From the NCBI GenBank assembly GCA_963815195.1, contig CAWFGE010000007.1:32001-96000 (forward strand): a stretch of DNA of 64,000 nt, read 5' to 3'. A model generated the notes under the pieces. It was not told the origin of the DNA and made no database searches. It worked only from the letters and a program-made list of their open reading frames with translations. Both the position numbers and the translations under genes were made by a program. Shown in pieces: positions 3,513 through 63,055 of the stretch (positions are counted from its first letter, which is position 1; the number at the start of each line of letters is the position of its first letter). Origin of the DNA: an uncultured Planctomycetaceae bacterium (GTDB lineage: Bacteria > Planctomycetota > Planctomycetia > Planctomycetales > Planctomycetaceae).

Positions 3513-4343
3513 AACGGTAGATCCCAGAGAACTGCCGAATTCATTGCCTGTGTTTTTGCTGATTGCTGGCTGTTACCGATTAAAAATTAAAACACGAAGG
3601 GACTAGCATGCCGATTCGAACGTGCACAAACCATCTTGCAGAGTTCCAGCAGGCGCTATGCGGTGATTGGTGTAACTTGCCATTCGGAGAAATTGACGGT
3701 AAATCGGTCGGCGGCGAGGATAACCCCCTGTCCTACAACATCATGCCATTGCCCGAAGCCGCCGATCTCGAATGTCTGGGCCGAGTGGAGTTTGTCGGCA
3801 ACGTAAAGCATCGCAAAAACCTCACTGCCATTAGTGCCATTCTTCTTTTCTGGGAACAAATCTAGCTTTTCAAGAAGAAACTCACACGACGGCTCTTCGG
3901 AGTATCCATAAAGAAATAAAGATGGGACGTTTGGAACTGGCGCACTCCCGTGTGATCCCATCGGTGCCGGCGCGGCTAATGAGGCGATCCGACTGACTAG
4001 AAGCATCAACGCCGGTAAAACGAAAACGATTGTGGACACGGAGAATAAGATTCGCCTTGGCAATAGGGGGACCAGGCCATGCTGGTGAATCCCCAAAACA
4101 AGGTCGTGGATCGCGTGTCTAATACTCGCAGTCAGGTTAGGCGCGGTGTGTTTATTGCGTTTTGACACTTCTGACCATCGAGACGTGCATTATTGGTGCG
4201 GTCCCATCACGGGATTCTCGATCCTGATGGCGTAGAAATAGATGGGCCTGATAAGTGATTTTTCACAGTCACGTGTTTCCCTGGCCAGTTCAGGTTAGCT
4301 GAATCGTTCTCCGGTAATCCCTCAAACAGAAAGCGAGTTGCCC

Positions 4344-5980: not shown

Positions 5981-6890
5981 TGCCCCAATCCATCCACAGG
6001 GACTGACCCGCGAACACATTTGCAAGCACTTGCCGACTTGGATACCGGCGCGAACCATCCGTTCGGCCAGCCCACCGGCTACGAATTGGTACACGACGGA
6101 AAGCGTTACGCCCCAAAGGCCGTGATCGGTTTGGCCTGCTGGGGCGGATTTTGGAACCGCAGGAATTTCGCGGCGGTGAGGCCCCGGGCAGGCGAATTAC
6201 GTGCTGCGACATTTGGGATTCGCCGTCGTCCCCAAAGGCGAACAGCCAGACGACGAAGGCCAGGAATCGCGGCAACCCTGGTCCGAAGCCGAGGTCAATC
6301 TGCTGGTTGCGGATTACTTCGACATGCTGCGGGCCGAATTCTTGGGCCAATCCTACAATAAGGCCCAGCACCGAAGGACGCCGAGTCCCCAGCTAAATGG
6401 CCGATCGGACGGTTCCATTGAATTCAAGCACCAAAACGTGAGTGCGGTGCTGGTCGATCGCGGGCTGCCCTATATTGAAGGCTACAAACCGCGGAGCAAC
6501 GACCAGGGCCTTCTGGTCCAGGCCGTGGACGCGTACCTGGAAAATCATCCCGATTTTTCTTGACCAAATTGCCAACAGCCCAACGATCGATCCACCCGGC
6601 GTCCCCAAAATCATCAGCCCAAACCCTGACCAGATCATCGAACCGCCGCCCGAGCAGATTATCGCCCCGCAATTCGACGGCAAACCGTTGCTGTCCCGAC
6701 GTGGTCGGCGGATCGATTTCGCCCAACGGGATGCCGCGAACCGGAGGCTTGGGAAAATGGGTGAGGAATTTGTCGTGCACCTGGAACGCCATCGCCTGCA
6801 GGCAATCGGCCGGGACGATCTGGCCCTGCGGGTCGAATGGGTCGCCCAGACCATTGGCGATGGGCTGGGCTTCGACATATTGTCTTTCAA
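5981..6890 (+). pseudogene. DUF3883 (NO VEIN C-terminal-like) nuclease-domain gene with McrA-like N-terminal head; frameshifted and 3'-truncated at the CRISPR array
   Basis: Fragments HPFGQPTGYELVHDGKRYAPKAVIG, WSEAEVNLLVADYFDML..SIEFKHQNVSAVL and NRRLGKMGEEFV..GDGLGFDILSF; the expected IEVK motif is absent. Confidence 0.75.
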
Positions 6891-7265
6891 CGGGGCCGCG
6901 GTCATTCAACCGCGGAAACGCCATCTGTTGGCCGGCCGCAACACGCCAACCCTCTCCGCTTCAATGGGGCCGCGGTCATTCAACCGCGGAAACGGTACCT
7001 ATGGTCTCGTACCCTTGGACGCTACCGGAGTAGCTTCAATGGGGCCGCGGTCATTCAACCGCGGAAACTGCCTAACGAACAAATCCCAGGAGTCCAGACA
7101 CGCGCTTCAATGGGGCCGCGGTCATTCAACCGCGGAAACCCGGATACTCATAGTCAAAAGCAAGCTCCTGCTCGGTCGCTTCAATGGGGCCGCGGTCATT
7201 CAACCGCGGAAACAAGGAACTGTTGAAATGCCTCCGACGCAAACCGCGGCTTCAATGGGGCCGCG
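6884..7265 (-). CRISPR. Orphan CRISPR array, type I-G (I-U)-like repeat; 5 full repeats plus a truncated 6th, 5 spacers
   Basis: 36-bp repeat GCTTCAATGGGGCCGCGGTCATTCAACCGCGGAAAC at 6884 (3 mismatches), 6958, 7033, 7104, 7178 and 17 bp at 7249; spacers 38, 39, 35, 38, 35 bp; CCGCGG hairpin; reverse complement ends ATTGAAGC; no cas genes in the window. Confidence 0.97.
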
Positions 7266-7390
7266 TGGAGATCGGCGTGCAATTGGGACCCACTTCGGGG
7301 GCAGGATCGGCGCGGAAAATGGACCCACCGTAGAAAACTTCGCATGCTACAGGATTGGAGGAGTCTGGTCCTGTTTCAGCGGAGGAGAGG

Positions 7391-8935
7391 ATGCTCACGG
7401 TGGACGATTATGCACGGATTCGTTGGGCTTATCGCGATGGCATGAGCCTCAGGGAAATTGAGAGAACATTTCATCACTCGCGAAAAAAGATTCGTGAGGT
7501 CTTGCGAGGCGCGGGCGAGCCGACGCCTTACGGCGGCAGCAAGCGGCTCCCCAATTGGGACGGTTTCACGATCGCATCCTGGAGATTCTCAAAGAGGATG
7601 AATCCGCGCCGCCCAAGCAGCGGCATACGCGGATGCGGATCTTCGAGCGGATCCGGGACGAAGACGGATACACGGGCGGCTATGATGCCGTGCGGCGGTT
7701 CGTGAACCGGCATCGGAAAAACCATGCTGAGACGTTCATCCCGTTGGATCATCGGCCCGGCCAGCGAATCGAAGCCGACTTTGGCGAGATTTCGGTGGAC
7801 TTCCCCGACGGTCGCCGGAAGGTCAACGTGCTGATCCTGGTCTGGTCGTACTCCAACCTTCCGTTCGCGGTGGCGCTGCCGACGCAGCGAACCGAAGCGA
7901 TCTTGGAGGGCATGACGCAGGCGTTTGATTTTTTCGGGTGTGTGCCGGAAGAAGTCTGGTGGGACAATCCGAAGACGGTGGCCGAGACGCTGTTGGCGGG
8001 GCGGTCGCGGAAGATCAACCCACGTTATCAAGCGCTCGCCAGTCACTATGTTTTCGATCCGCTGTTCTGCATGCCTGCGCGGGGCAATGAAAAGCCGGTG
8101 GTGGAAAACCGCGTGAAGACGTTGGAGCGGAAATGGTCCACGCCCGTGCCTCGGGTGAAGGATATGGAAGAGTTCAATGCTTATCTTCGCGAGTGCTGTT
8201 TGAAGGAACACGATCGCTGCAGCAGCGGCCAGACGCAAACGATTGGGGAGCGCTTTGCGGAGGAAAAACAGCGATCCGCTCCGCTTCCGGGGCCGCGGTT
8301 TGATCCCTGCATCCGGCAATCGGCGAAGGTCAACAAGTATCAGTTCGCGCGGTTCGACAACGTGAACTACAGCGTGCCTCGCCACGCCGCGTTTCAAACG
8401 GTGACGGTCAAAGGCTATGTGGATCGCGTCGAGATTGTGCTGAACGAAACCGTCATCGCCGTCCATAAACGGAGCTATCAGGCGGGCGAGGATGTGCTGG
8501 ATCCTTTGCACTATTTGACCACATTAACGCGTCGCCCGGCGGCTTTGGATCATGCGAACGTGTATCGCGATTGGAAGCTGCCCGCCGTGTTCGGCGAACT
8601 CCGCGAGCGTTTGGAAAGGCGGCACGGTCCCCACGCGGGCGTGCGGCAATTCGTGCGGGTGCTGCAGTTGCTGGCCGAGCATCCGCTCTCGCGCGTGCAG
8701 GCGGCGATCGAGCAACTTCGCGGCCCCGAAGGAGCCGATGCCGATCGCATCATTCGCCGCGTGGAAGCCTCCGCCCTCCGCCTGTCGGAAACATCGTCCG
8801 AGGGCATTTCCACTCCGATCGAGTGCGAACACCCCGGCGTGTTGTCGGTTCAAGTTCCCTGTCCGAGCTTGAGCCATTTTGACCAGTTCCTGTCCTCCTT
8901 CCAAGGAGATTCCGATTATGTCCCCGAACCCGAAA
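7391..8935 (+). CDS. istA: IS21 transposase IstA (frameshift near 7530-7555; 3' end overlaps istB and is approximate)
   Basis: HTH N-terminus, PGQRIEADFGE, VWWDNPKT, NEKPVVENRV and FDNVNYSVP motifs. Confidence 0.92.
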
Positions 8936-9276
8936 CACGATGCCAACCAGATGCTCCTCAAGGCCAACCTCAAGCAACTCCGGCTGCCGACAATCCTGGC
9001 CGAGTACGAGAAGTTGGCCCGCGAAGCGAGTGCCTCGAACCAGACCTTCGAGCAGTACCTGCTCCGGTTGACCGAACTGGAGGTCGCGGCCCGGCAGACC
9101 AATGCCTTGAACAGCCGGATCCGCAATGCGAACTTTCCGGTGGAGAAGGGACTGGAGGATTACGACTTCCAAGCGGTGCCCGGCCTCCACAAACAAACGA
9201 TTTTGGAGTTGGCCCGCGGGGAGTGGATTGCCCAGCATTTCAATGTGTGTTTTCTCGGCCAACCGGGGACGGGAAA

Positions 9277-9677
9277 GGTCCGACCATCACAAGACACCTC
9301 TGGTCACTCAGTTATCGCGCGGTGAGATCACCGTCATCGATCCGGCCCATCCGCTTTATGGCCGAACATTTGATTTGTTCGGCTTAGCCCGCCTGCCAGG
9401 TTATCGTCAGTATTATCAAGTCGAGATTTTTCCTGACGAGATGACCTACATCGACGTCAGCAGCACGAACCTTTCCACCGCTCCTCCCCAAAAAACTTCC
9501 TGTCTGACCCTGGACGCGCTCCAGGATTTGGTGACTACCTTTCGGGATATTCTTTCTCGGAGGGAAGCCGATGTCACCCATTGCCACGGACCAGGTGTGG
9601 AACCGTCTGACTCTTCCAGAGCAGCAGCGGATCATCCAGCAAATCGTCGTCATTCTAACGGAGGAACTGGAGCATGA
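9277..9677 (+). CDS. Element ORF1 (Y4bD/Y4pK/DUF5372-like), with no ATG of its own in the integrated state
   Basis: Open frame RSDHHKTPLVTQLSRGEITVIDPAHPLYGRTFDL..; its stop overlaps the recombinase start (ATGA); family call from recalled motif only. Confidence 0.65.
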
Positions 9678-9855
9678 ACGGATCGATGAAAGTCAGCACC
9701 AGCCATTTGAATCGCCGCGGGATCGTATATCTTCGTCAGAGCACGACGAAGCAGGTCGAGAAAAACCAAGAGAGTGCCCACAACCAGCGAGCCTTGAAAA
9801 CCCGGTTGTTGGAGTTGGGGTGGAAGCCGGAACAAGTCAGCATCCTGGAGGATGA
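9571..9855 (+). CDS. Element ORF2, small helical protein overlapping ORF1 and the recombinase
   Basis: GGAGGG RBS, then MSPIATDQVWNRLTLPEQQRIIQQIVVIL; identical in copy B (46603-46887). Confidence 0.55.
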   Translation: MSPIATDQVWNRLTLPEQQRIIQQIVVILTEELEHERIDESQHQPFESPRDRISSSEHDEAGREKPRECPQPASLENPVVGVGVEAGTSQHPGG

Positions 9856-11749
9856 TCAAGGGCAATCGGCCACGCAAACGGCGGGACGCGGGGCCTTTCA
9901 ACAGATGGTCGCCGACGTCGGCTTGGGTAAGGTCGGCATCATTCTGGGCTATGAAGTTTCACGGCTTTCCCGCAACGATGTGGATTGGCATCGACTGTTG
10001 GAATTGTGTGCGATCTTTGACACACTCATCGGTGATGTGGATGGGTTGTATCATCCACGGGATTTCAACGACAGGCTCCTCTTAGGCTTGAAGGGCACGA
10101 TGTCTTCGGCAGACTCCATAGCCTCCGATTGCGATTGGACGCGGGTCGATTGTCGAAGGCCGCGCGGGGCGAGTTGGTGCAAAACTTGCCGACGGGCTTG
10201 GTCCGCAATCTGGACAAGACGGTGATGCTCGATCCCGATCTGAGCATTCAAAAGCGATTGCATTTGGTGTTCGACAAGTTCGTGGAGTTGGGCACGATTC
10301 AAAAAGTCTTGACGTTCCTGGCCAAGAAAAATTTGAAGATTCCCCGGCGCCAAGTTTCGGGCCTTTATGCGGGCGAAGTGTTTTGGAGAGAAGCCACGGC
10401 CGCTTCGTTGGGCTCGATCCTGCATAACCCGGCTTATGCAGGCGCGTTTGCTCATGGGCGTCGGCAAGTCGATCCCACGCTACGAATTCCCGGTCGTCCT
10501 GCCACGGGTCGCACGCGCCGGCCCCAAGCGGAATGGTCGGTCTTAATTCCCGGCATCTACCCGGCCTATATCAGTTGGGAGCAGTACGAAGACAACCAAC
10601 GCCGAATCGCTCAAAACAACCTCCGCATCCAACAACGACTCGCCGCCAAGCAAGCCATCCGCAACGGCTGCGCGTTGTTAACGGGCTTATTGCGCTGCGG
10701 AAAATGCGGTCGAACGATGGGAGTGAATTACAAGGAGAACCGCTTTCAATACTCATGCAATTCTGGCTATCGGCATTACGCCCAACGATCCTGCCAGTAC
10801 TTGGGCGGCAACAAGATCGACGAGGCGGTGACGGAAGCTTTCTTTGAAGTGCTGCGGCCTGCCGAGATCGATGTGTTGGAGAAACTCTCCGCCGAAAGGG
10901 CTCGCACGCATGCGGACGTGGTTCGGCATTTGGAGCAAGACGTCGGGCGACTTGCAATACGCCGCCCATCGGGCCGAGCAACAATACGACTGTGTCGATC
11001 CCAAGAACCGTTTGATTGCGGCCAGTCTGGAAGAGAAATGGGAATCGGCTTTGTTGGCGCAAAAGCAAGCCGAAGAAAACCTGGCGGATGCCCGCCGAGA
11101 AATTCCCCAACCGATCCGCGTACCGAAGTCCTTGCGAGACGCCTTCGCGGATGTCGGGCGGCAGCTTCCCGAACTCTGGCCCGAGTTGTCTTGGGAGGCG
11201 AAGAAGTCGTTGTTGCGGACGATGATTACGGGAGTCAATCTTCACCGGCAATCGGATGGGCTGGTGCAAATTCGCATGGTCTGGGCCGGCGGTTCGGTGA
11301 CCGAAACGTCGGCTCTCCTACGGCGTTTTTCAATGAAACACACGGACTTGGAAGAGCACATCGTGGAACGCATCCGGCAAGAAACCAGCGAAGGCCGGTC
11401 GAGTGAAATGATCGCGGCGGATCTCAATCGCGAAGGCCATCATCCCTGTCGTGGCGAACAATTCACCTCGCAAATCGTGAACAAGTTAAGACATCGCTAC
11501 CGGATCAAAAGCCCGCGTGCAAAGAACCTGCCCCATGCCTGGACCGCCGCGGAAATGGCTCAGGAAATCGGGCACAACATATCCTGGATGTATCATAAAA
11601 TTGAGCAAAGACAGATCGTGGTTTCTGTCGATCCAACTTATCGGTGCTATCTGTTTCCCAAAACTGAGGAGGTTAAAGACGCCATGCTAAAACTCAAAAA
11701 TCACGAAACCGAGCAAATCACTATCCCAAGGGGGCACAACAATGGCTGA
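9674..11749 (+). CDS. Large serine recombinase (~690 aa once two indels are corrected from copy B)
   Basis: IVYLRQST catalytic Ser motif, EVSRLSRN, LLGLKGTMS, ILHNPAYAG, zinc ribbon LLTGLLRCGKCG..YSC..C. Confidence 0.93.
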
Positions 11750-12470
11750 GTCAAAACTCATATCAGCATTGGATTGGGCCTGGCCGCGTGCCGAGCGGGT
11801 TATAAGACCAAGTTCTTCACCGCCGCGGCTTTGGTGAATCGCCTGGAAGAAGCTCAGAAACATTACACCTTGGAGCGGTTGTTGAGCCAACTCGACAAGC
11901 TCGATTTGTTGATCGTGGATGAACTGGGTTACTTGTCGTTCAACCGGTCGGGAGCAGAGTTGTTGTTCCAGGTCTTCGCGGATCGCTACGAACGCAAGAG
12001 CCTGCTGATCACGAGCAACCTGGCCTTTAGCGATTGGGGGCAAATCTTCCAAGGCGAACGCATGACCGCGGCATTACTGGACCGCATCACGCACCATTGC
12101 CACATCTTCGAGATGAACGGCGAAAGCTACCGCTTCAAACAGTCGATGAAAGACAAAAAAGCGTCCGAAAACAAGAAGCCGAAAACCCGCTAAGTCGGCT
12201 CCGACGACGCCCGTCTTTCCTTCCCAACCTGCCCCATTCCACATCATTCCCCACCCCAGGTGGGTCCCATTTCCGCGCCGAAGTGGGTCCCAATTGCACG
12301 CCGATCTCCAGGCGTTGGAATGACTTAAAAACAAGGGGATTTGAAGCGGTTACGCTCTCGCTTCGTTCATACTCGCATTGTATTCATGTGGGGGTGATAT
12401 GGCCACGGGTGTTACCAAATTGTTACCAAAGTTTGAGATTCCACCGGACCAATGTCGCCGCTGGCATCCT

Positions 12471-40399: not shown

Positions 40400-40463
40400 G
40401 TCTGCAAACCGGCGTCTGCAAACTGGCGTCTGCAAACTGGCGTCTGCAAACTGGCGTCTGCAA
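40400..40463. repeat. 14-bp tandem repeat, ~4.6 copies
   Basis: Unit GTCTGCAAACTGGC (first copy has one mismatch). Confidence 0.92.
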
Positions 40464-40513
40464 GTTGAGATTTGAACAATCATTCTGCAACTCTTCCAGG
40501 GCCATTAGGTCGA

Positions 40514-43699: not shown

Positions 43700-44705
43700 G
43701 GGGCGAACCTACCAGCAGTCTGGCAGGCTGGCAAGCATTATTTCCTGCAAGCCAGCAAGACAGTTCGCCATCACGACAACATGTCATCCTGATGGCTTGA
43801 TGGAAAGCCAGTCGTCTTTCACCCTTGCAAGATGGATTGCTTGCAAGCTGTCCCATTGTCGTTCCAGATTGCTGGCAAGCTGACATGCATGCAAGCCGGT
43901 TGGATGGCTCGCAAGTTGTCTGGCAAGACAGCATGCGGACCGGCTTGAAAGATGCTTTCCCGGTGAAATCTGCCTTAGCAAAGCTAAGGGAAGATGTCTG
44001 AACACAAATCATTTGGGCCAGCAAGCCAACTGACTCAGGGAAAGCGAGGAAATGGGCGGGCGATCTGGCAGGGAAATGATCGGTTGGAGACGGAGTAAGT
44101 TGGGTGGCTGAGACGCCGCCCGACTGGAGCCGCACCTGCGTCAGGACTTCGGGATGCGGGACGGCGTCCGGGTTGTCCGGGTGTTCGGCGTCAATTAGCT
44201 CTGCTCTTTAGCGTCAATTAGATTGACCGTGCAAGAGGGAGAAATCGACGGGCATCAGCCTTTGGAGCCAGGCTTTGACTCGTCCGAATCGGCCGAGTTT
44301 TTCTTGTTTTTCTTGGCGGTTTCCAAGCGGTAGCTGGGGATGTTCAACTCGATGATGATCGAGTGATGGATCAAACGGTCGATGGCCGCCGCGGTCGTCA
44401 TGGGATCCTTGAAGATTTGCTCCCATTGAGAGAAAGGCAGATTGCTGCTGATCAGAAGGCTGCCCCGTTCGTAGCGTTCGGCCAGGAGCGTGAACAGCAC
44501 TTCCATCTCCTCGCGGCTCTGTTGAACATAGCCCAAGTCGTCGATGATCAGCGCTTCGTAGCGGCTGAGCTTTTTGATCCACTTCTCCAACCGCAGGTCG
44601 CGTTTGGCCCGCAGGAGTTCTTGGACCAGCATCTGGCAGGTTGTGAATAACACCGTGCGGCCTTGACGCGCGAGTTGGTCGCCGAGTGCGGATAACAGAT
44701 TCGTC

Positions 44706-47181
44706 TTGACTCAGCCATTGTTGTGCCCCCTTGGGATAGTGATTTGCTCGGTTTCGTGATTTTTGAGTTTTAGCATGGCGTCTTTAACCTCCTCAGTTTT
44801 GGGAAACAGATAGCACCGATAAATTGGATCGACAGAAACCACGATCTGTCTTTGCTCAATTTTATGATACATCCAGGATATGTTGCGCCGATTTCCTGAG
44901 CCATTTCCGCGGCGGTCCAGGCATGGGGCAGGTTCTTTGCACGCGGGCTTTTGATCCGGTAGCGATGTCTTAACTTGTTCACGATTTGCGAGGTGAATTG
45001 TTCGCCACGACAGGGATGATGGCCTTCGCGATTGAGATCCGCCGCGATCATTTCACTCGACCGGCCTTCGCTGGTTTCTTGCCGGATGCGTTCCACGATG
45101 TGCTCTTCCAAGTCCGTGTGTTTCATTGAAAAACGCCGTAGGAGAGCCGACGTTTCGGTCACCGAACCGCCGGCCCAGACCATGCGAATTTGCACCAGCC
45201 CATCCGATTGCCGGTGAAGATTGACTCCCGTAATCATCGTCCGCAACAACGACTTCTTCGCCTCCCAAGACAACTCGGGCCAGAGTTCGGGAAGCTGCCG
45301 CCCGACATCCGCGAAGGCGTCTCGCAAGGACTTTGGTACGCGGATCGGTTGGGGAATTTCTCGGCGGGCATCCGCCAGGTTTTCTTCGGCTTGCTTTTGC
45401 GCCAACAAAGCCGATTCCCATTTCTCTTCCAGACTGGCCGCAATCAAACGGTTCTTGGGATCGACACAGTCGTATTGTTGCTCGGCCCGATGGGCGGCGT
45501 ATTGCAACGCCCGACGTCTTGCTCCAAATGCCGAACCACGTCCGCATGCGTGCGAGCCCTTTCGGCGGAGAGTTTCTCCAACACATCGATCTCGGCAGGC
45601 CGCAGCACTTCAAAGAAAGCTTCCGTCACCGCCTCGTCGATCTTGTTGCCGCCCAAGTACTGGCAGGATCGTTGGGCGTAATGCCGATAGCCAGAATTGC
45701 ATGAGTATTGAAAGCGGTTCTCCTTGTAATTCACTCCCATCGTTCGACCGCATTTTCCGCAGCGCAATAAGCCCGTTAACAACGCGCAGCCGTTGCGGAT
45801 GGCTTGCTTGGCGGCGAGTCGTTGTTGGATGCGGAGGTTGTTTTGAGCGATTCGGCGTTGGTTGTCTTCGTACTGCTCCCAACTGATATAGGCCGGGTAG
45901 ATGCCGGGAATTAAGACCGACCATTCCGCTTGGGGCCGGCGCGTGCGACCCGTGGCAGGACGACCGGGAATTCGTAGCGTGGGATCGACTTGCCGACGCC
46001 CATGAGCAAACGCGCCTGCATAAGCCGGGTTATGCAGGATCGAGCCCAACGAAGCGGCCGTGGCTTCTCTCCAAAACACTTCGCCCGCATAAAGGCCCGA
46101 AACTTGGCGCCGGGGAATCTTCAAATTTTTCTTGGCCAGGAACGTCAAGACTTTTTGAATCGTGCCCAACTCCACGAACTTGTCGAACACCAAATGCAAT
46201 CGCTTTTGAATGCTCAGATCGGGATCGAGCATCACCGCCTTGTCCAGATTGCGGACCAAGCCCGTCGGCAAGTTTTGCACCAACTCGCCCCGCGCGGCCT
46301 TCGACAATCGACCCGCGTCCAATCGCAATCGGAGGCTATGGAGCTCTGCCGAAGACATCGTGCCCTTCAAGCCTAAGAGGAGCCTGTCGTTGAAATCCCG
46401 TGGATGATACAACCCATCCACATCACCGATGAGTGTGTCAAAGATCGCACACAATTCCAACAGTCGATGCCAATCCACATCGTTGCGGGAAAGCCGTGAA
46501 ACTTCATAGCCCAGAATGATGCCGACCTTACCCAAGCCGACGTCGGCGACCATCTGTTGAAAGGCCCCGCGTCCCGCCGTTTGCGTGGCCGATTGCCCTT
46601 GATCATCCTCCAGGATGCTGACTTGTTCCGGCTTCCACCCCAACTCCAACAACCGGGTTTTCAAGGCTCGCTGGTTGTGGGCACTCTCTTGGTTTTTCTC
46701 GACCTGCTTCGTCGTGCTCTGACGAAGATATACGATCCCGCGGCGATTCAAATGGCTGGTGCTGACTTTCATCGATCCGTTCATGCTCCAGTTCCTCCGT
46801 TAGAATGACGACGATTTGCTGGATGATCCGCTGCTGCTCTGGAAGAGTCAGACGGTTCCACACCTGGTCCGTGGCAATGGGTGACATCGGCTTCCCTCCG
46901 AGAAAGAATATCCCGAAAGGTAGTCACCAAATCCTGGAGCGCGTCCAGGGTCAGACAGGAAGTTTTTTGGGGAGGAGCGGTGGAAAGGTTCGTGCTGCTG
47001 ACGTCGATGTAGGTCATCTCGTCAGGAAAAATCTCGACTTGATAATACTGACGATAACCTGGCAGGCGGGCTAAGCCGAACAAATCAAATGTTCGGCCAT
47101 AAAGCGGATGGGCCGGATCGGTGACGGTGATCTCACCGCGCGATAACTGAGTGACCAGAGGTGTCTTGTGATGGTCGGACC
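44706..47181 (-). mobile_element. Large serine recombinase element, copy B
   Basis: Near-identical to 9277-11754 (a few SNPs and indels); core TT at 47182-47183 and 44706-44707. Confidence 0.95.
44711..46784 (-). CDS. Large serine recombinase, copy B (indels near 45505 and 44885)
   Basis: Same motifs as copy A. Confidence 0.93.
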
Positions 47182-47579
47182 TTCCCCGAGCCGGGCGCCG
47201 AAAATCAGCAAGTTGTCGCGACGGTCCAAGAACGTGCCGCTCTTGAGGGTCTCGAATTGCTGGGTCACATGCAGGGGCAGCCGCGACCATTGGAATTGCT
47301 CCCAGGTTTTGCCTTCCAAGAGCTTCGAGTTCCTGAGCAGCCGATCGATGCGGTTTTGGTGACGGGCCTGGCATTCCTTCTGAGTCAATTCCCAGAGGTA
47401 TTGGGGATGCGTCCAATTCTCCCGCGCCGCCTGTTCGGCCACCATCGGGTATTGTTCCCGAAACGTCGGCAGCTTGAGTTCTTTCAGTTGGTCCGCCAAC
47501 CGGGCGGGATGGATCGCCGGCGAAGGACTCGCGGTCTTCGCCGCCCTGGGGGTCTTCGAGGGAGACGTTTTCTTCTTCA

Positions 47580-48466
47580 TTATGAGAAACCTCCTGTGAG
47601 GGGAGTAAGGAATCGAACACGGACAGATCGGGAGGCTCGACGCGAACCTCCAAGGGACTGGGCAATTGCTGCCGGCGTTTGACGAGGTCCAGGACTTTCT
47701 CCGCCTGGACCGGAATGCCTTCGGAGAGGCACCACCTGAGCACGTCATCCACCAAGTCCAAGCCTTCGTGCTTGGCGGCGTGCAGGATTTTCAGATACTG
47801 CTTGATTGCGGATTTCTCGTCATTTCGGGAGACGAGTTGATCGTAGGCCATCCGAAACCGAGTCGTCGGATACAGATGATTGACGTATTTGTAATTGAGG
47901 AAGGCCCCCGGCTTTCGGATCAAGGAATCGATCACATGCCGAAAGTCGATGTGCTCTTTGCCTTGACCAAACAGCCTCGGGAGGCGTTCCAAGCAGTCCC
48001 CGCGATACCGAAGCTCCAGATGGTCTTGATGAATCAGAATGTCGAGTTCCAAGCCGACGTACTGGCTGCTCACCGAATACAGGTTGCGTTTGATCCTCAA
48101 GATGCAATCGGATTTGACCTGCACCCGCACGCGAGTGGTCGAGGGCAGCCGCTTGAAAGGCAATGGCCGAAGCGCCGCACATTCCTTCTCAAAGGCACTG
48201 GTCCGCCCGGCATTGCGGCGCGTCACCACTTGCTTTAAGAACTCCCGGTATGCCTCGACTGTCTCGAAGTCGCGATGGCCCCGCAGCCGGAGGGTCTGAT
48301 CCAGCCAGGTCTTGAAGTGGCCGTGGGCCGACTCCACATCCCCGTTCTCGTGAGGCTTTCGCACGTTGATCCGATGCCCTTTGAGGCCATAGTGATCCAA
48401 CAGCGCTTGGTACGCTCTCGCGAATTGCTTGTCGCTGGAGAGGTTGTTCACCGCCGCTGACAGGCT
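47580..48466 (-). pseudogene. istA: IstA transposase, 3' half only
   Basis: SLSAAVNN..YQALLDHYGL..PHENGDVESAHGHFK; RNLYSVSS; HVIDSLIRKPGAF. Confidence 0.85.
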
Positions 48467-49651
48467 GCACAGCGTTTCGAAGCTCGGCACGCGGCCGCGT
48501 TCGAGGGCCTGTTTCAGTCCCGTGAGCCGCCAGTTGGTGTAGCCGTGGATGTGGCCGTTTTCGTCGCCGCATTGCTCATAGAGAGATGCCAACCCTTCGT
48601 TGAACCAGGACGGGCAAGCCGGAAAATTGGCGGCCATGAAGGGGTGCACGATTTCATGGACCAGCGTCCCGCCGCCGGTGGAGATATTCATCACCAAGGC
48701 GTTGTGGGCCGCACTGTAATAGCCGTAGGGCGTCGTGGGCCGGTCCCTCAAAAACTCCCAGGCGTGTTTTTCGTAGCTGTCCTTGTCCTGAAACAGCCAG
48801 ACATTGATGATGTCGTCCGGATCGCGCTGGAAAAAATCTTTCTTGAGTCTTTTGACCGCCCACTCGACCGTCTGCCGGCTGCGGCGTTTGACCCTCTCCG
48901 CGTCTTCGTCACCGACGACGACGAAGGGCTTTTCAATGACCATCGTGAAATCCCGGCCGGCGAGTTTCTCCTTCAGCCCCAGGATGTGCTGGGCAAAGTC
49001 GGCATCGGTCATCCGCCGGGTCCTGGAGCCTTCCTTCAAATGATCCGGAACCAGGGGCATGCGGATCAGCGTCCATTTCTTGGGATCGTACTTCAGCGGC
49101 CAGAGCTTCAAAAACAGTTCGCGGTCCATTCGCCGATAGGCCCCGTCCTTCGCCGCCGGCTCGTGGTAGATGACTTCATCGTCCCGCTGGGAATAGCCCA
49201 CGATCAGGCGGAAATGCTCCGTGGTGCGGGGCTGGTCGCTGTAATGCATGCAGACGATGGAAGGCACGCCTCGCTTCAGGTCGCGGTGGAGTTGGCGGAA
49301 TTGGGCGTCCAATTCGGCCTCCGCGCGGTCGGCTTCGATCGCATACCACGCCGGGCCGATGTCGAAGCCGATGGTTTTGAGCGAGTTTACCAAATCCCGC
49401 GTGTAGCAACCTCGGCCCAGGAGCGGATCGAGACCGGATTGATCGAACACCCAATCTTGATCGACCGTCCGCCCCAACCGCTGCATCGCCATCGCCACGC
49501 AGGCTTCGCCGCAGAAGTCGGGCTTTTGCCGAATGTGGGGCATGTTTTCGATCATCACACTGTCGAGCGGGGAATCGACCTGGGCGGTCGAACTCCACAA
49601 AACGCCCAACGAACTCGGCAACAATAGCAAAGGGACCGCAAACTTCCACAT
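48467..49651 (-). pseudogene. Secreted peptidase-C39-like plus HExxH (DUF1570/peptidase MA-like) protein, C-terminus replaced by istA
   Basis: Signal peptide, QKPDFCGEAC, EHFRLIVGY, TLVHEIVHPF..WFNEGLAS. Confidence 0.7.
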
Positions 49652-49697
49652 GGGATTCGCCTTTTTGGAAGATGAACTTGGGTTTGAAAAAAGTAGG

Positions 49698-49975
49698 CCC
49701 GCCCCGTTGGGGCTTTTGCATCTTGTTCGTTCCCGTTTCCCAGGGCTTCGCCCTGGGCTGACATAGAGCCGGACCTTCGGTCCTTTTTCCGTAATTTGGA
49801 ACGACTGAATTGAATATCCGTACTTCAAAAAGCTCAGGAAATTGGTTTGGTTTTCAAGAGCCGCGCACGAAGTAAGCGGTTTTCAGGGACTCAGACAACG
49901 CAAGACCGCTTACTTCGTGCGCGGCTCAGGCCTTTTTGCAAGACCGCTTACTTCGTGCGCGGCTCAGGCCTTTTT
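49698..49975. repeat. Intergenic REP-like palindromes and a 38-bp tandem duplication
   Basis: CCCAGGGCTTCGCCCTGGG hairpin; GAGCCGCGCACGAAGTAAGCGGT (49858) inverted to copies at 49905 and 49943. Confidence 0.7.
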
Positions 49976-50135: not shown

Positions 50136-51995
50136 CTAGCGAACCAGAACCGTGCGGAGTTCCACGACCTGCGGCGAGATCTGATTCGCCAGCCGGTCGA
50201 GGTGCGGTTTCTCCGCCGTGGTGCAGCGTTGGATGTCGTCGTATAGCCGCCGCCAATCCCGCGTGAGTTGGTCGGCTTGTCGCGCGAGGTCCTGGGCGTT
50301 TGCCTGGCGGGCCAGCATTTCGTGAATCTGCTGGCAGTCCTGCCGGAACGCGCTCGCGTCCTGGATCGCATAATCGCGGAAATCCACGGCCCGCGTGCTG
50401 AGCCATTGGCCGACGTCGTTTTCCAGATGCCGGGCCAGGTTGTCCAAGGACGCGGCGATTTCCACGACGTTCTGATTGTAGCCGCCTGGGCTGGTTCCCG
50501 CTTGTACCTGAAGCGCTTGCCCCAAGGCCTGGATGTTGTTGTCGATTTCCGCCAGCACCTGCTGGGCCGCCTGGCTTTTTAGCGGTCGAAACACGCTGGA
50601 GAACGACCGCCACGAATCCTCGATGTAATGGTAGGCATCGACGATCTGCTGCACGTCTTCCCCGCGCGAGACCACGTCGGTGAAGTTCTGGCAGACGCCG
50701 TAAAACTCATCCGCCACGGTCAAAACTTGATCCGAGTTGGGCAGTTCGATCATGAGTTTCAGCGGGGCTCGCACGAAGAAGTCGTCCACATCCCGCTTGA
50801 GCACGCTGCACAGATACAGCAGCTTTTCGCGGTCCATCTGGTAAGGCAGCCACAACAGTTCGTGGATCGAGCTGTCCACGTCGTTGACCCGGCGAACGCT
50901 CCGCTCGACGTAGCGGTTGTTGAGCGGACGCAAATCCGTCGCATACGGATACCACACCCGCTGGAACTCGCGGTATTGCGCGGCGACTTGCTGATAATCG
51001 CCGGTGTCCCCGACGGTGTTGGCGACCTGGCGGGCTTGCTGTTCGATCCGCCGGCCCCTAAGCAAAAGATCGATCTGCTGCTGCGAACGCGGGACTTCGA
51101 TTTCGATGTCGTCCATCAGGTTGTGCAAATCAGCCGACAGCGCCGCCGTCTTCCGCAAGAGGTCTTGCCGGTCGAGCTGCGGCGAGATTTCAAAGGTTTT
51201 GCCGAGTTCCTTCGCGAAGGAGTTCAACTGTTGAATTTGGGTGACCGTGCGGCTGTCGAGGCCGCGCACTTGGGCCAGGCGGTACGAAAGCAGCCGCCAG
51301 TCGCGGTCGAGGTCTTTGAGGTCCGGGATGATCATTTGATGGTCGTTGTACTGCCGGCTGCGGTCAGCGAGCATCGCCACCCGCGCCCTCAGGCGGAGCA
51401 CATCGTCGAGATACGGACGCAAGCCCGGCACCCGCCGCATGTCGTCGTTGAGAAGCGTCGCCAACTGGTCGGCATCGCGGGAGACCTCCGCCAGCACGCG
51501 CTGGGCTTCCCGCATCTGCGGAGTCGGGGACGTTAAATTGGTCCGAGGGGCCGGAAGCGGGGTGCTTCCCAGCGGATCGTACAAGCGGTTTTGATCGCGG
51601 CGGTCGAATTCATTTTGCATCAACGGCTTCAATAAATCATCCACGTTTTCGCGTCCGCCGTCGTTGCGATAGCGGGGATCGTCGCGGGCGATCCGGTAGC
51701 GGGGATCGTTGCGATCGTACCGCGGATCGGTGTTGTTGTATCGAGGATCGTTGCGATCGTACCGGGGATCGGTGTTGTTGCGGGGATCGGTGTTGTTGCG
51801 GGGATCGGTGTTGTTGCGGGGATCGGTGTTGTTGTATCGGGGATCGTTGCGATCGTACCTCGGATCGCTCGGCGAGCGAAAATTGTCCTGCCCCAACAGC
51901 TTCGCCCCGATGATGGAAACGCCGAGTCCCATCAGCAACGCCCCCAACACCCACCGCGGACTGCGCAAAGCAGCCTTTAACCAGCCAAGACTCAT
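50136..51995 (-). CDS. Exported helical hypothetical protein with an N-terminal DPR repeat tract
   Basis: Signal/TM segment; RYDRNDPRYNNTDPR(NNTDPR)n encoded by tandem DNA repeats at ~51655-51866. Confidence 0.8.
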   Translation of the reverse strand: MSLGWLKAALRSPRWVLGALLMGLGVSIIGAKLLGQDNFRSPSDPRYDRNDPRYNNTDPRNNTDPRNNTDPRNNTDPRYDRNDPRYNNTDPRYDRNDPRYRIARDDPRYRNDGGRENVDDLLKPLMQNEFDRRDQNRLYDPLGSTPLPAPRTNLTSPTPQMREAQRVLAEVSRDADQLATLLNDDMRRVPGLRPYLDDVLRLRARVAMLADRSRQYNDHQMIIPDLKDLDRDWRLLSYRLAQVRGLDSRTVTQIQQLNSFAKELGKTFEISPQLDRQDLLRKTAALSADLHNLMDDIEIEVPRSQQQIDLLLRGRRIEQQARQVANTVGDTGDYQQVAAQYREFQRVWYPYATDLRPLNNRYVERSVRRVNDVDSSIHELLWLPYQMDREKLLYLCSVLKRDVDDFFVRAPLKLMIELPNSDQVLTVADEFYGVCQNFTDVVSRGEDVQQIVDAYHYIEDSWRSFSSVFRPLKSQAAQQVLAEIDNNIQALGQALQVQAGTSPGGYNQNVVEIAASLDNLARHLENDVGQWLSTRAVDFRDYAIQDASAFRQDCQQIHEMLARQANAQDLARQADQLTRDWRRLYDDIQRCTTAEKPHLDRLANQISPQVVELRTVLVR

Positions 51996-59897: not shown

Positions 59898-60020
59898 TCG
59901 GTTTTTGGGTAACTATGATTTAGCGTTTCGCGGCCTCTTGCGTTTGCGTGTTTCTGGATGCCTGACGCCATTGACACTGACAGTTTTCGTTTTCCCACGG
60001 GATTCAAGCAAAACCGTCAA

Positions 60021-61938
60021 TCAGCCGGCTCGCCAGTCCTCAAAATCCAACAGCCGAAACTCGCACCGCGGGCGTCGGCTGGTTTTCACCAACCGCCATT
60101 CCCCGCCCCGCTTCTTTTTCATCCGGTTCAAGGCTTTCTCGGCTTCTTCGCTGGTCCGGTAGCGGCTTCGGCGGCCTGCAGTTCGCGGGGCGTGATGGAT
60201 CCCCCGTTGGATTTGATGACCACTTCCAAATCCCGCAATTCCATCAGTTCTTCATCGGCTCCGCCCGGAACATGGAAGGCGGAATAGATGCGCTTGGTTT
60301 CGCGGCCGAACCATTTCGCCAAACGGATGCCGGCCTGCAAACTCTCCAACCCCACGGATTCGCTCTCGGCGTTCAGCGTCACGAGTTCCACCAAATGCAC
60401 CAGAAGGGCCAGCCGCGCGGCGTAGCTTTCCAGTTTCGACCAGGCCGAAGCCAAAGCGCCGGAGAGTTCGGCCTGTTCCTCCCCGTGCCGATCCATGAAT
60501 GCAATCCATTCGGCCCGGGCGTCGGGAGTCAGCCCCACCAACTTGGGGCGGGGCATGCCCGTTTCATCCTGATCGGGTTCCAGGTCCAAGAGTCCCTGAT
60601 AAACGTCGGCCAGTTGAGCTTGAGCGGTTTCCCCCACTTCGGCATCAATCCAGCGGCGGGGCGTGCGGGGCGGCAGGGCCATCAGAAACCGCGCGGCCAG
60701 TCCGTTCTGAAAATGTTCCCGCCCCAAAACGGATTTCAGGATCTCCGGCTGAATGCCCCCGGTGATCGAAACCGCGGCTCGGCTGATGTGAGTCACGGGA
60801 ACGGAAGTCTTTCGATCCACGGTGATGGAATCCGCATCGAACAGCGAAAGCCATTTCGCCACATCCCCGCCATTCCCCGAACGGTACTGATTGAAACTCT
60901 GAAACCAGCCGCTCAATTCATCGCGCTGCACCAACAGCCCTTTCGGGTTTTCCATCAACCGCACGGGCAGGGCTTCGGTTGTCGTGTCATCGACCAACAG
61001 CCGGCGGGCAGTGGGCGGGGCCGGCGGATCGGGCGGCGGTTCCCCGCGGCGGCGGCCGGCCTGCTTCCATTCAGTCAGGTCCGCATCGAATTGGATTTTG
61101 TCTTGGGTGTGGCGCTCAGGTCTTCACCGAATTGGGCGAACCATCGGCTTTGAATCGTCCGCAGCGGCCGCAAGGCCATTTTCATGGCGGGAGATTTGCC
61201 GGTTCCCGATTCGCCGATGGTGCAAGTCCAAATCACGGGCGGGACGATCCATTCCTCTTTGATCCGAAGCGCCGGGAAATGCCCACGCAACCGCCCAAGG
61301 CGGAGAGAATCGGCAGAGCGATGAAGGCGGGATCGCAGCCGGCGGAGGGCGGCGCGGGTGGTAAACTCCCGCAACGGTTTCGGCAGACAATCCACGGGGA
61401 ACGGCTCGAAGGTTCCCAGCACGCCGGGTTTTTCGGAAGGCGGGCAGGCGTCGAACAGGGCGGCGGGATCATCTTCTCCCAACCAATGCGCTTGGATTTC
61501 TTCCCAAGATTCGGCGGGGTTCATCAATGCCGCTTGCACGGTCTTCGCTCGCGAGAGCAGCCGACGGCGTTTCGCACATTCAGCCACGATGCCCGCGTAA
61601 TACCGCACGTTGGCGGTGCTTTGGGGGGCTTCCATGATTTCCCCAAGAAACAGCGCCGAGGTCGGGGGCGCATCCTTGGGGGGCAACCGTTGCGCCAGAA
61701 TCACCGCATCCACGGGTAGCCCGTCGCGGTCGAGTTCCAGGGCCAAAGCGAATATCGTTTGATGCAGGTCGTTGTAGAAATCGCTTGGCGCAATGATTTC
61801 GCCGGCGGCTTCGATCGCTTCGGGACTGTTGAGAATGACCGAACCCAAAACGGCCCGCTCCGCATCGGGATTGTTGGGGGGCAATTCAATCGCCCGTTGC
61901 CGGCCGTTGTCGAGTTGATTGAAGAGACGATTTATCAT
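60021..61938 (-). CDS. DnaB N-terminal-domain plus DUF3987/YfjI ATPase fusion (frameshifts)
   Basis: PPNNPDAERAVLGSVIL..DFYNDLHQTIF; FPVDCLP; IGESGTGKSPA; DTTTEAL; RDELSGWF; GGIQP; GLAARFL. Confidence 0.82.
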
Positions 61939-62074
61939 CGGACTCACTTGGTTAAAGTCTGGTGAGTCCCGGCAATCGTCGCGGAATCCGCGTTCCCAAA
62001 TGCGGTTCGGGTCCGTAAGATGGTGTTGCGCAGATTCCGGCAAACCGCCGGGGTTCCCACGGCCGGCCCGGTCA

Positions 62075-62350
62075 TCACGGGTTGGCCGTTCCCTTTGCGC
62101 CCATGCAAAAAGCCCGCGGAAGATCCGTGGGCTTCATGTGCGCGCGGCGGTTTGCGTTCCTTGGGCTTCGCGTTCTGAGAAGAATCTCCATGGCGTTTTC
62201 AACGTCGCCAGCGGTCCAATCCCAGGCCTTCGATGAATTGAGCCTGGGGGCGGGGAATTTTCCCGTTTTGAGAGAGTGACGCAATTGCCAATAGCTGATG
62301 GTCGGAAATCCGCGCGATTGGATTTCCGACAATGCTTCTTGAGTCGTCAT
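62075..62350 (-). CDS. Small HTH-like protein
   Basis: GGAGG RBS; MTTQEAL..QLRHSLKTGKFPAP. Confidence 0.55.
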   Translation of the reverse strand: MTTQEALSEIQSRGFPTISYWQLRHSLKTGKFPAPRLNSSKAWDWTAGDVENAMEILLRTRSPRNANRRAHMKPTDLPRAFCMGAKGTANP

Positions 62351-63055
62351 AAAACCTCCACAGAAAAAGTTCTAGCTGGAGGTTCGATTCCGTTCCGCTC
62401 GGCCCCACATGACAGGTTATAGCGGGCCATGACCGCTCGCGAAATCTTCATCAAACATCCTCCAAAACGAAAAGGTTTGGAGGGTGACGCTGGCAAGACA
62501 GGACACCCTCGCGTTTACCGGGATTCCTCCGCGGTTCCGGCCAGGGTGATGCATGCAATAGTTCTAGCAACTTGAGGGTGAATGTCAATCAGCAAACACA
62601 AGATGTGCGGCCCGCATTTTTCCGCGTTGGCGAAATTTTCGGGGATTTCTGAGAAGCCCAATGACAGTATTCGTTTTCCCGCTTGTTTCGCCCAAAACTG
62701 TCAGTGTCAACGGCGTCACCGGCTGGGAAAGAGGGTTCAAAAAATCTTGGCGATTTTTTTCGGCGGTGTGGGTCCTTCCGAGACCCCGCCCCGTCGCGCG
62801 GGTATCCAATGGCGGGGTTTTCGCCCATAAAACGGATTTTTGCGGGGGTTCTTCTTCTTACGCTTTGGAACGGAGCAAGTGCTTCGGCCCGAACATCCCG
62901 AAAACTATTGGGGGGCCGTGACCACAACCGACAAATCGGCCCCGAATGGCCGGTTGCGATCGGCACCCAGTGCACCCAAGATTTTTCGGGCGGTATTTCA
63001 AAACCCCGATATACTATCGCTAACCGGTCTGTGACCCTTAATTCGGAGGAATGAC

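Follow-up and report, generated by a model that had tools for sequence, protein, structure and literature searches.

A DUF5372-like gene of a large serine recombinase element with its Shine-Dalgarno sequence and start codon at the opposite element end

How is a gene translated when its body lies at one end of a mobile element while its Shine-Dalgarno (SD) sequence and start codon lie at the other? This question is raised by a 2.48-kb unit that is present twice, in inverted orientation, in a 64,000-nucleotide stretch of DNA (the window) from an uncultured Planctomycetaceae bacterium (assembly GCA_963815195.1, contig CAWFGE010000007.1). It belongs to the DUF5372 type of large serine recombinase (LSR) elements (copy A, 9275-11754; copy B, 44706-47183; the repeats themselves extend over 9263-11757 and 44703-47195). 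It encodes ORF1, a short ORF2 and the LSR. A preliminary description of this DNA suggested that the attachment site attP lies within ORF1 and that joining of the element ends in an excised circle supplies the missing start. Comparison of sequences confirmed that ORF1 would be whole only with the ends joined, the SD and start codon being contributed by the right end and the body by the left end.

Copy A resides in the istB gene of an IS21-family element that carries istA and is bounded by 37-nt inverted repeats (7262-7298 and 12278-12314; entire element 7262-12314, plus strand). The flanking istB halves at 8918-9274 and 11755-12193 (plus strand) correspond to positions 2-104 and 105-236, respectively, of the Pfam IstB_IS21 model. 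Copy comparison and end joining place the crossover core, AA, at 9275-9276 on the left (attL, plus strand), in the Walker A lysine codon of istB, and at 11753-11754 on the right (attR, plus strand), where the copies are alike up to the AA and differ beyond it; the join restores istB. Copy B, on the minus strand, interrupts another istB (cores at 47182-47183 and 44706-44707). In this genome, eight copies are near full length, another is partial and a degenerate right end is also present; both ends are found in seven of the nine copies examined. All seven have AA at each end and sit in the Walker A lysine codon of an IS21 istB, and joining their ends in silico puts the Walker A motif back in frame, a pattern that places the element with LSRs that cross over at a 2-bp core and restore the target exactly. 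The core occupies codon positions 1-2 of istB and positions 3+1 of ORF1; hence, forward insertion gives no ORF1-IstB fusion. Such a fusion is also ruled out by a stop that the istB frame meets 17 codons inside the element, and the right-end ATG, being out of frame with istB, is ruled out as a fusion start.

Some further observations concern the copies and their surroundings. The left and right flanks belong to different istB types in three of the seven complete copies (contigs C12, C15 and C16; loci L004 and L005), which reflects either inter-copy rearrangement or mis-assembly across the repeat. On contig C6 (locus L007, 1450-1560), a degenerate right end is still attached to the C-terminal half of istB. 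A second LSR family in this genome (C14, C16, C18, C19 and C21) uses a second site in one istB type, downstream of Walker B, and on C16 and C18 one istB gene carries members of both families. At 46781-49882 (minus strand), a single 1015-aa frame combines a Peptidase_C39-like domain, part of istA and ORF1 of copy B. This frame was rejected as a genuine extension of ORF1; it rests on a short istB deletion, in an assembly with scattered indels between the copies, and probably results from an IS21 insertion plus indel errors. Five CRISPR-like repeats of about 37 nt, spaced by 71-75 nt, occupy 6883-7218 and stop just before the left inverted repeat of the IS21 element at 7262. Elsewhere the window has 18/21-nt coding tandem repeats (51679-51867), 14-nt tandem repeats (40400-40469), a 38-nt repeat with an inverted copy (49858-49975) and a pair of 25-nt inverted repeats 2.7 kb apart (59963-62718), the last possibly marking a further IS.

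The right end of copy A reads AAGGGGG (11728-11734), an ATG (11742-11744) that overlaps the last LSR codons, the LSR stop TGA (11747-11749), 3 nt short of the core, and then the AA; in copy B the start is at 44718-44716 on the minus strand. This layout is as originally proposed, and the 137-aa, in-frame ORF1 expected on joining the ends through AA is found in both window copies and in 7/7 complete genome copies. The body (codons 5-137; 9276-9677, plus strand) encodes a DUF5372-like protein with an HPxxG motif, a predicted SH3-like barrel and C-terminal helix, and an unconserved tail. The SD of the right-end start (SD plus ATG, 11728-11744, plus strand) was described as well spaced; its calculated pairing energy is -10.3 kcal/mol, similar to those for ORF2 (-10.6) and the LSR (-9.5). 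ORF2 (9559-9690, plus strand; ATG at 9571, frame open to 9855) has its own SD and encodes a short helical peptide with a conserved stretch of about 36-40 residues. It has no NCBIfam match; by eye, an ORF2-like peptide precedes the LSR in most of 16 loci inspected. The LSR (9674-11749, plus strand) scores above the Pfam cut-off for the N-terminal resolvase (PF00239), recombinase (PF07508) and zinc ribbon (PF13408) domains, which assigns it to the LSRs. Its frame is shifted in both window copies (in copy A near 10113 and 10950). These lesions are probably assembly errors or private to the copies, since an intact LSR of 691 aa is present in 3/9 genome copies and a Logan contig from a public run disagrees with copy A at both positions. 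In a circle the genes would follow head to tail, with the ORF1 ATG overlapping the last LSR codons and the ORF1 stop overlapping the LSR ATG. No sigma-70-like promoter was found on the plus strand of copy A, scanned in its integrated form.

The preliminary description noted that a chance join would be in frame with odds of about one in three, and that homologous elements should keep the right-end start in frame with ORF1. A frame test is meaningful here, as the split target gene sets the circle length modulo 3 while start codons play no part. Among 186 oriented loci, 105 have the ORF1 motif together with a full-length LSR frame, and in 38 of these the two flanks align in order to a single target protein (the test left out the remaining 67, whose flanks do not). 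Clustering at 80% LSR identity yields 21 families, that of the window included. When the ATG or GTG with the best SD was taken from an interval that begins 30 nt ahead of the LSR stop and reaches 130 nt past it, it is in the ORF1 frame in 19/21 families, out of line with the one-third expectation (binomial p = 8e-8, which is overstated given that the families are related). This rule replaced an earlier one after the latter had given 16/20 families in frame, one split and three out, with one further family lacking a candidate; the earlier rule used estimated boundaries, and those from weak target alignments were visibly off. In one of the two misses, overlapping GTGs tie (-13.0 off frame and -12.6 in frame) and empty sites favor the in-frame reading; the other, L195, has a target match with a 23-residue gap. 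Moreover, an SD-backed ATG or GTG near the LSR stop is present in 88/103 loci vs 24/93 host control windows (the loci are not independent). The 18 codons ahead of the HP motif are stop-free in 48/48 families, while the other two frames have stops in 25 and 34, a result that is partly built in, as the families were picked through the ORF1 profile.

The position of the start relative to the core is also maintained. In 12 multi-copy families, the ends could be defined purely by comparing copies. For eight of them, the distance from the start to the end of the shared right-end sequence is 13 or 16 nt; in another, SNPs led to a wrongly set left limit. The start falls at 13 or 16 nt also in the NGR234, G351 and Microvirga families after the core had been placed by eye (for G351 via empty sites, which confirmed an AC core in a G351 family). 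For the second LSR family in the genome, the core is CC, and the ATG lies 16 nt ahead of its end and is in frame once istB is restored. A start at 13 or 16 nt before the core end implies that the core occupies codon positions 3+1. By eye, the end dinucleotides are not identical in every copy of three families, which suggests that their LSRs tolerate core mismatch; the 3+1 phase would then buffer the ORF1 protein against it. The right-end sequences diverge widely among families, yet SD, start, frame and codon phase are kept. Collectively, the seven complete copies and the conservation across distant families support the proposal that attP lies within ORF1 and that the right end would provide its SD and start, and we consider it very probable that this split arrangement is real and under selection.

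How widespread are such elements, and what is ORF1? Relatives of the LSR were found in 470 plasmid records and in 17/401 genomes of Planctomycetota, and records from NGR234, Burkholderia, Streptomyces and Rhodococcus label the left-end gene DUF5372. ORF1 itself falls below the Pfam gathering cut-off for DUF5372 (PF17342); among relatives, the long form scores 79-90 bits, one short form 25.7 and two others 14-15. However, the H, P and G of HPxxG are invariant in a 28-sequence alignment that includes true DUF5372 members, and the gene occupies the same left-end position upstream of the same LSR family. Judged by motif and position, ORF1 is a distant DUF5372 relative and not a scored member. A single ORF1 sequence as query gave zero matches, a scan of genome contigs gave three loci, and a profile built from 11 ORF1 sequences collected 3724 representatives at E<=0.001. 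The N-termini that gene callers assign to these proteins vary strongly, as expected if the true start is located at the other element end.

Among the closest known settings is the DUF5372 plus recombinase cassette on pNGR234a of Sinorhizobium fredii NGR234, whose genes we take to be y4bA-y4bD. Its LSR is 39% identical to that of the window and its DUF5372 gene is likewise at the left end; both copies have a right-end SD and ATG in frame across a TT core, and the annotation places the DUF5372 start at an internal GTG. It represents a long form (DUF5372, HTH, small ORF and LSR; 3.3 kb) inserted in DDE transposase genes, whereas the window element is a short form in istB. Other relatives differ in their sites. 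One family on a Mesorhizobium plasmid has inserted into related elements, within their recombinase gene, so that copies are nested (L046, L049, L052 and L057). In a G351 family (L070-L075 and L106-L125) the target is not a transposase gene but a non-coding hairpin repeat, which has about 40 matches in that genome. At L083 (NZ_CP023072.1; oriented 3573-3700), a single IS66-like target contains two different members separated by about 40 bp, and the right-end SD and ATG of the first read in frame into ORF1 of the second, a possible chromosomal route to a complete gene.

The AlphaFold2 model of the ORF1 residues from the left end (83-row alignment; pLDDT 89.7, pTM 0.63) has four strands and a C-terminal helix, a predicted SH3-like barrel plus helix. 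Foldseek returned no match at E<=0.001; the best fold match (Z 6.2, rmsd 3.2, 60 aligned residues) belongs with generic SH3, SH3b and KOW barrels, none of them distinct. In the preliminary description an integration cofactor or directionality factor was suggested as an example of what ORF1 might be, an idea that gains from predicted binding: the model of ORF1 with the intact LSR scores 0.74, the best of three controls 0.01, and that mark is reached by 116/157 solved pairs and 2/215 mismatched pairs. The runs have at least 63% of contacts in common and a partner pLDDT of at least 68. No sequence relative of ORF1 was found among the sequences of solved structures; LSR structures with a recombination directionality factor (RDF) are present in the PDB, and the score may partly reflect likeness to them. 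In the models the HP motif (residues 23-28) and a helix (70-92) of ORF1 contact LSR residues 341-346, 393-420 and 481-544, assigned by reading of the sequence to the zinc ribbon and the two feet of the coiled coil. The four residues from the right end are dispensable for both the fold and the complex model. ORF1 is thus predicted to grip the LSR at the base of the coiled coil, where directionality factors bind; the available part of PMC11722253 places known RDFs near this base and DBD2.

These data can be arranged in the following model. The element would be an IS-like unit that its own LSR moves through a circular intermediate. In the integrated state, ORF2 and the LSR each have an SD and start of their own, but the SD and first four codons of ORF1 lie at the far end, as read from the sequence. 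LSR chemistry suggests excision at the 2-bp core. In the resulting circle the SD-ATG would be united in frame with the ORF1 body, as in the in silico join, and translationally coupled to the LSR stop. The ORF1 protein, predicted to bind the LSR at the coiled-coil base and the zinc-ribbon domain, would tilt it toward inserting the circle at a new site, which for this element is the Walker A codon of istB; integration would then cut ORF1 again and turn the factor off. The element could thereby sense whether it is free or inserted. We lean toward the reading that ORF1, made whole after excision, licenses LSR-driven integration of the circle. The proposed direction is a matter of logic, in that a factor that appears only once excision has occurred cannot be required to start it; the RDFs known to bind this site favor excision and prevent integration.

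Alternatively, ORF1 may have the opposite role. If it were a classical RDF, expressed once a rare first circle had formed, it would block prompt re-integration or trigger excision of other copies in trans, a positive feedback. The predicted ORF1 site coincides with the RDF-binding site, and RDFs, in the part of PMC11722253 at hand, activate attL x attR recombination and inhibit attP x attB. Many copies per genome offer targets in trans, and the unlike istB flanks noted above in 3/7 complete copies are as inter-copy recombination would yield, although homologous recombination or mis-assembly could equally account for them. However, the first excision would have to happen without the factor, and a 2.5-kb circle that does not replicate would not persist if it prevented its own integration. 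We regard this role as the main alternative, although a less likely one, and continue to favor integration.

Is the integrated ORF1 silent? According to the preliminary description it has no nearby ATG. This stands inside the element, where the first in-frame ATG is codon 60, and fails for the host flank of copy A. There, an ATG at 9243 lies 11 codons upstream of the junction, without an SD (-0.7), and a TTG at 9228 lies 16 codons upstream behind an SD-like stretch (-6.7), so that 9228-9245 (plus strand) may allow some host-derived leak in the integrated state; a further ATG is at 9126. Copy B has an in-frame ATG 36 codons upstream of the junction (SD -6.5). These starts in front of copies A and B invite the proposal of a quantitative switch, in which host or internal starts also allow translation of the integrated gene, with the circle raising the level or altering the N-terminus; the dispensability of the four right-end residues in both models fits this. 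So does one protein cluster in which most listed members start equally far upstream with varying, probably host-derived, residues. Nevertheless, host starts vary with the target and mostly lack an SD, and three of the nine copies, with a third flank type, have no in-frame upstream start at all. As for internal starts, the ATC at 9336 follows an SD-like stretch (-7.6), while a product initiated at M60 would lack the HP motif and the greater part of the barrel. In the 18 codons ahead of the HP motif, any in-frame ATG, GTG or TTG occurs in 19/48 families and an ATG in 1/48; an SD-backed internal GTG or TTG is found in 7/48, leaving 41/48 without an SD-backed internal start. A quantitative switch thus appears improbable, and translation of ORF1 from the circle is the reading that we retain.

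A circle would leave an end-to-end junction. None of the 25 contigs in the genome assembly contains it, and it was not seen in four public runs, all of them assembled contigs, which drop rare forms. The listing of public data named no RNA holder. A two-motif junction pattern for the long form had zero matches in viral contigs and in 211 loci, and in 0/105 loci is the right end repeated upstream of ORF1. Four downstream ORF1 matches among the 186 loci proved to be neighboring elements. Four proteins with junction-like N-termini (P0044, P0221, P0306 and P0316) were not accepted either, as their cluster mates obtain similar starts from host DNA; P0306 as a query had no match in viral contigs. The absence of the junction neither supports nor refutes the circle, since these data are assemblies that lose rare circles. 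That the frame is a by-product, with the right-end motif kept as recombinase-binding DNA and ORF1 vestigial, or with no free circle at all, would suit the missing junction and the overlap of this motif with the expected att arm, but is very improbable given that widely varying right ends retain SD, start, frame and codon phase and that ORF1, a member of the large family described above, is stop-free up to the junction.

Switching by end joining has precedents. As Lyras and Rood reportedly described in 2000, the circle joint of Tn4451/Tn4453 provides a promoter for the gene of the recombinase TnpX, itself an LSR. In ICEKp1 and ICEclc, end joining in the circle creates a promoter that switches on an element gene (PMC13023037, in its available part). 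The likeness is that end joining activates an element gene; these joints give a promoter for the recombinase gene, whereas the ORF1 joint would give the SD, start and first codons of an accessory gene. In the 'suicidal' integrases of SSV1, pTN3 and pT26-2, as covered by the accessible text of PMC8371274, attP is likewise inside an element coding sequence and the gene is whole only in the circle. Those are archaeal tyrosine recombinases that split their own gene in two large parts; here the recombinase is a bacterial serine enzyme whose gene ends before the core and stays intact, while its partner gene loses only the start. Integration-dependent immunity of mycobacteriophage BPs similarly places attP in an accessory gene and ties the protein to the recombination state. 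There, however, integration removes a C-terminal degradation tag and turns the repressor on, whereas for ORF1 it would remove the N-terminal start and turn the gene off (for BPs, the portion available of PMC4557955).

With the RDFs of serine integrases, e.g., SprB of SPbeta, ORF1 would share the small size and the predicted site at the coiled-coil base and DBD2. Those RDFs must come from the integrated element to excise it, while ORF1 is encoded whole only after excision (PMC11722253, as far as its available part goes). In this context, relatives of the window LSR hit conserved codons of several transposase genes and so resemble multi-targeting LSRs; that clade, according to the accessible part of PMC10083194, mostly carries DUF4368, which Pfam did not assign to the pieces of the window LSR. 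The literature searched has no description of this arrangement and no paper that mentions DUF5372 (ISfinder and most subscription journals lay outside its scope, and the tables of PMC10083194 may list these LSRs or att sites); the part of bioRxiv 10.64898/2026.09.08.750204 available holds nothing relevant to it. The known precedents involve a promoter at the joint, a split integrase or a clipped C-terminal tag, and we found none that relocates the SD and start of a recombinase partner. The ORF1 case is a form of attP-inside-a-gene switching in an apparently undescribed element family. Going further, we tentatively propose a widespread, undescribed family of LSR insertion elements with an 'inverse RDF', i.e., an LSR-binding protein that would be translated only from the circle and drive integration, with the crossover placed on a wobble position and the first position of the following codon, which would let the gene tolerate core changes acquired from varied targets.

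What does this arrangement mean for these elements? DUF5372 gains a testable function, and its variable annotated starts are explained by a true start at the other end of the element. A state switch at the level of translation would join those at the level of the promoter (TnpX and ICEKp1) and of split genes (SSV1 and BPs). If ORF1 favors integration, the usual directionality logic of serine integrases would be reversed, which would matter for LSR tools, as assays with the LSR only would miss the cofactor. The element family is common, and it preys on the transposase genes of other mobile elements.
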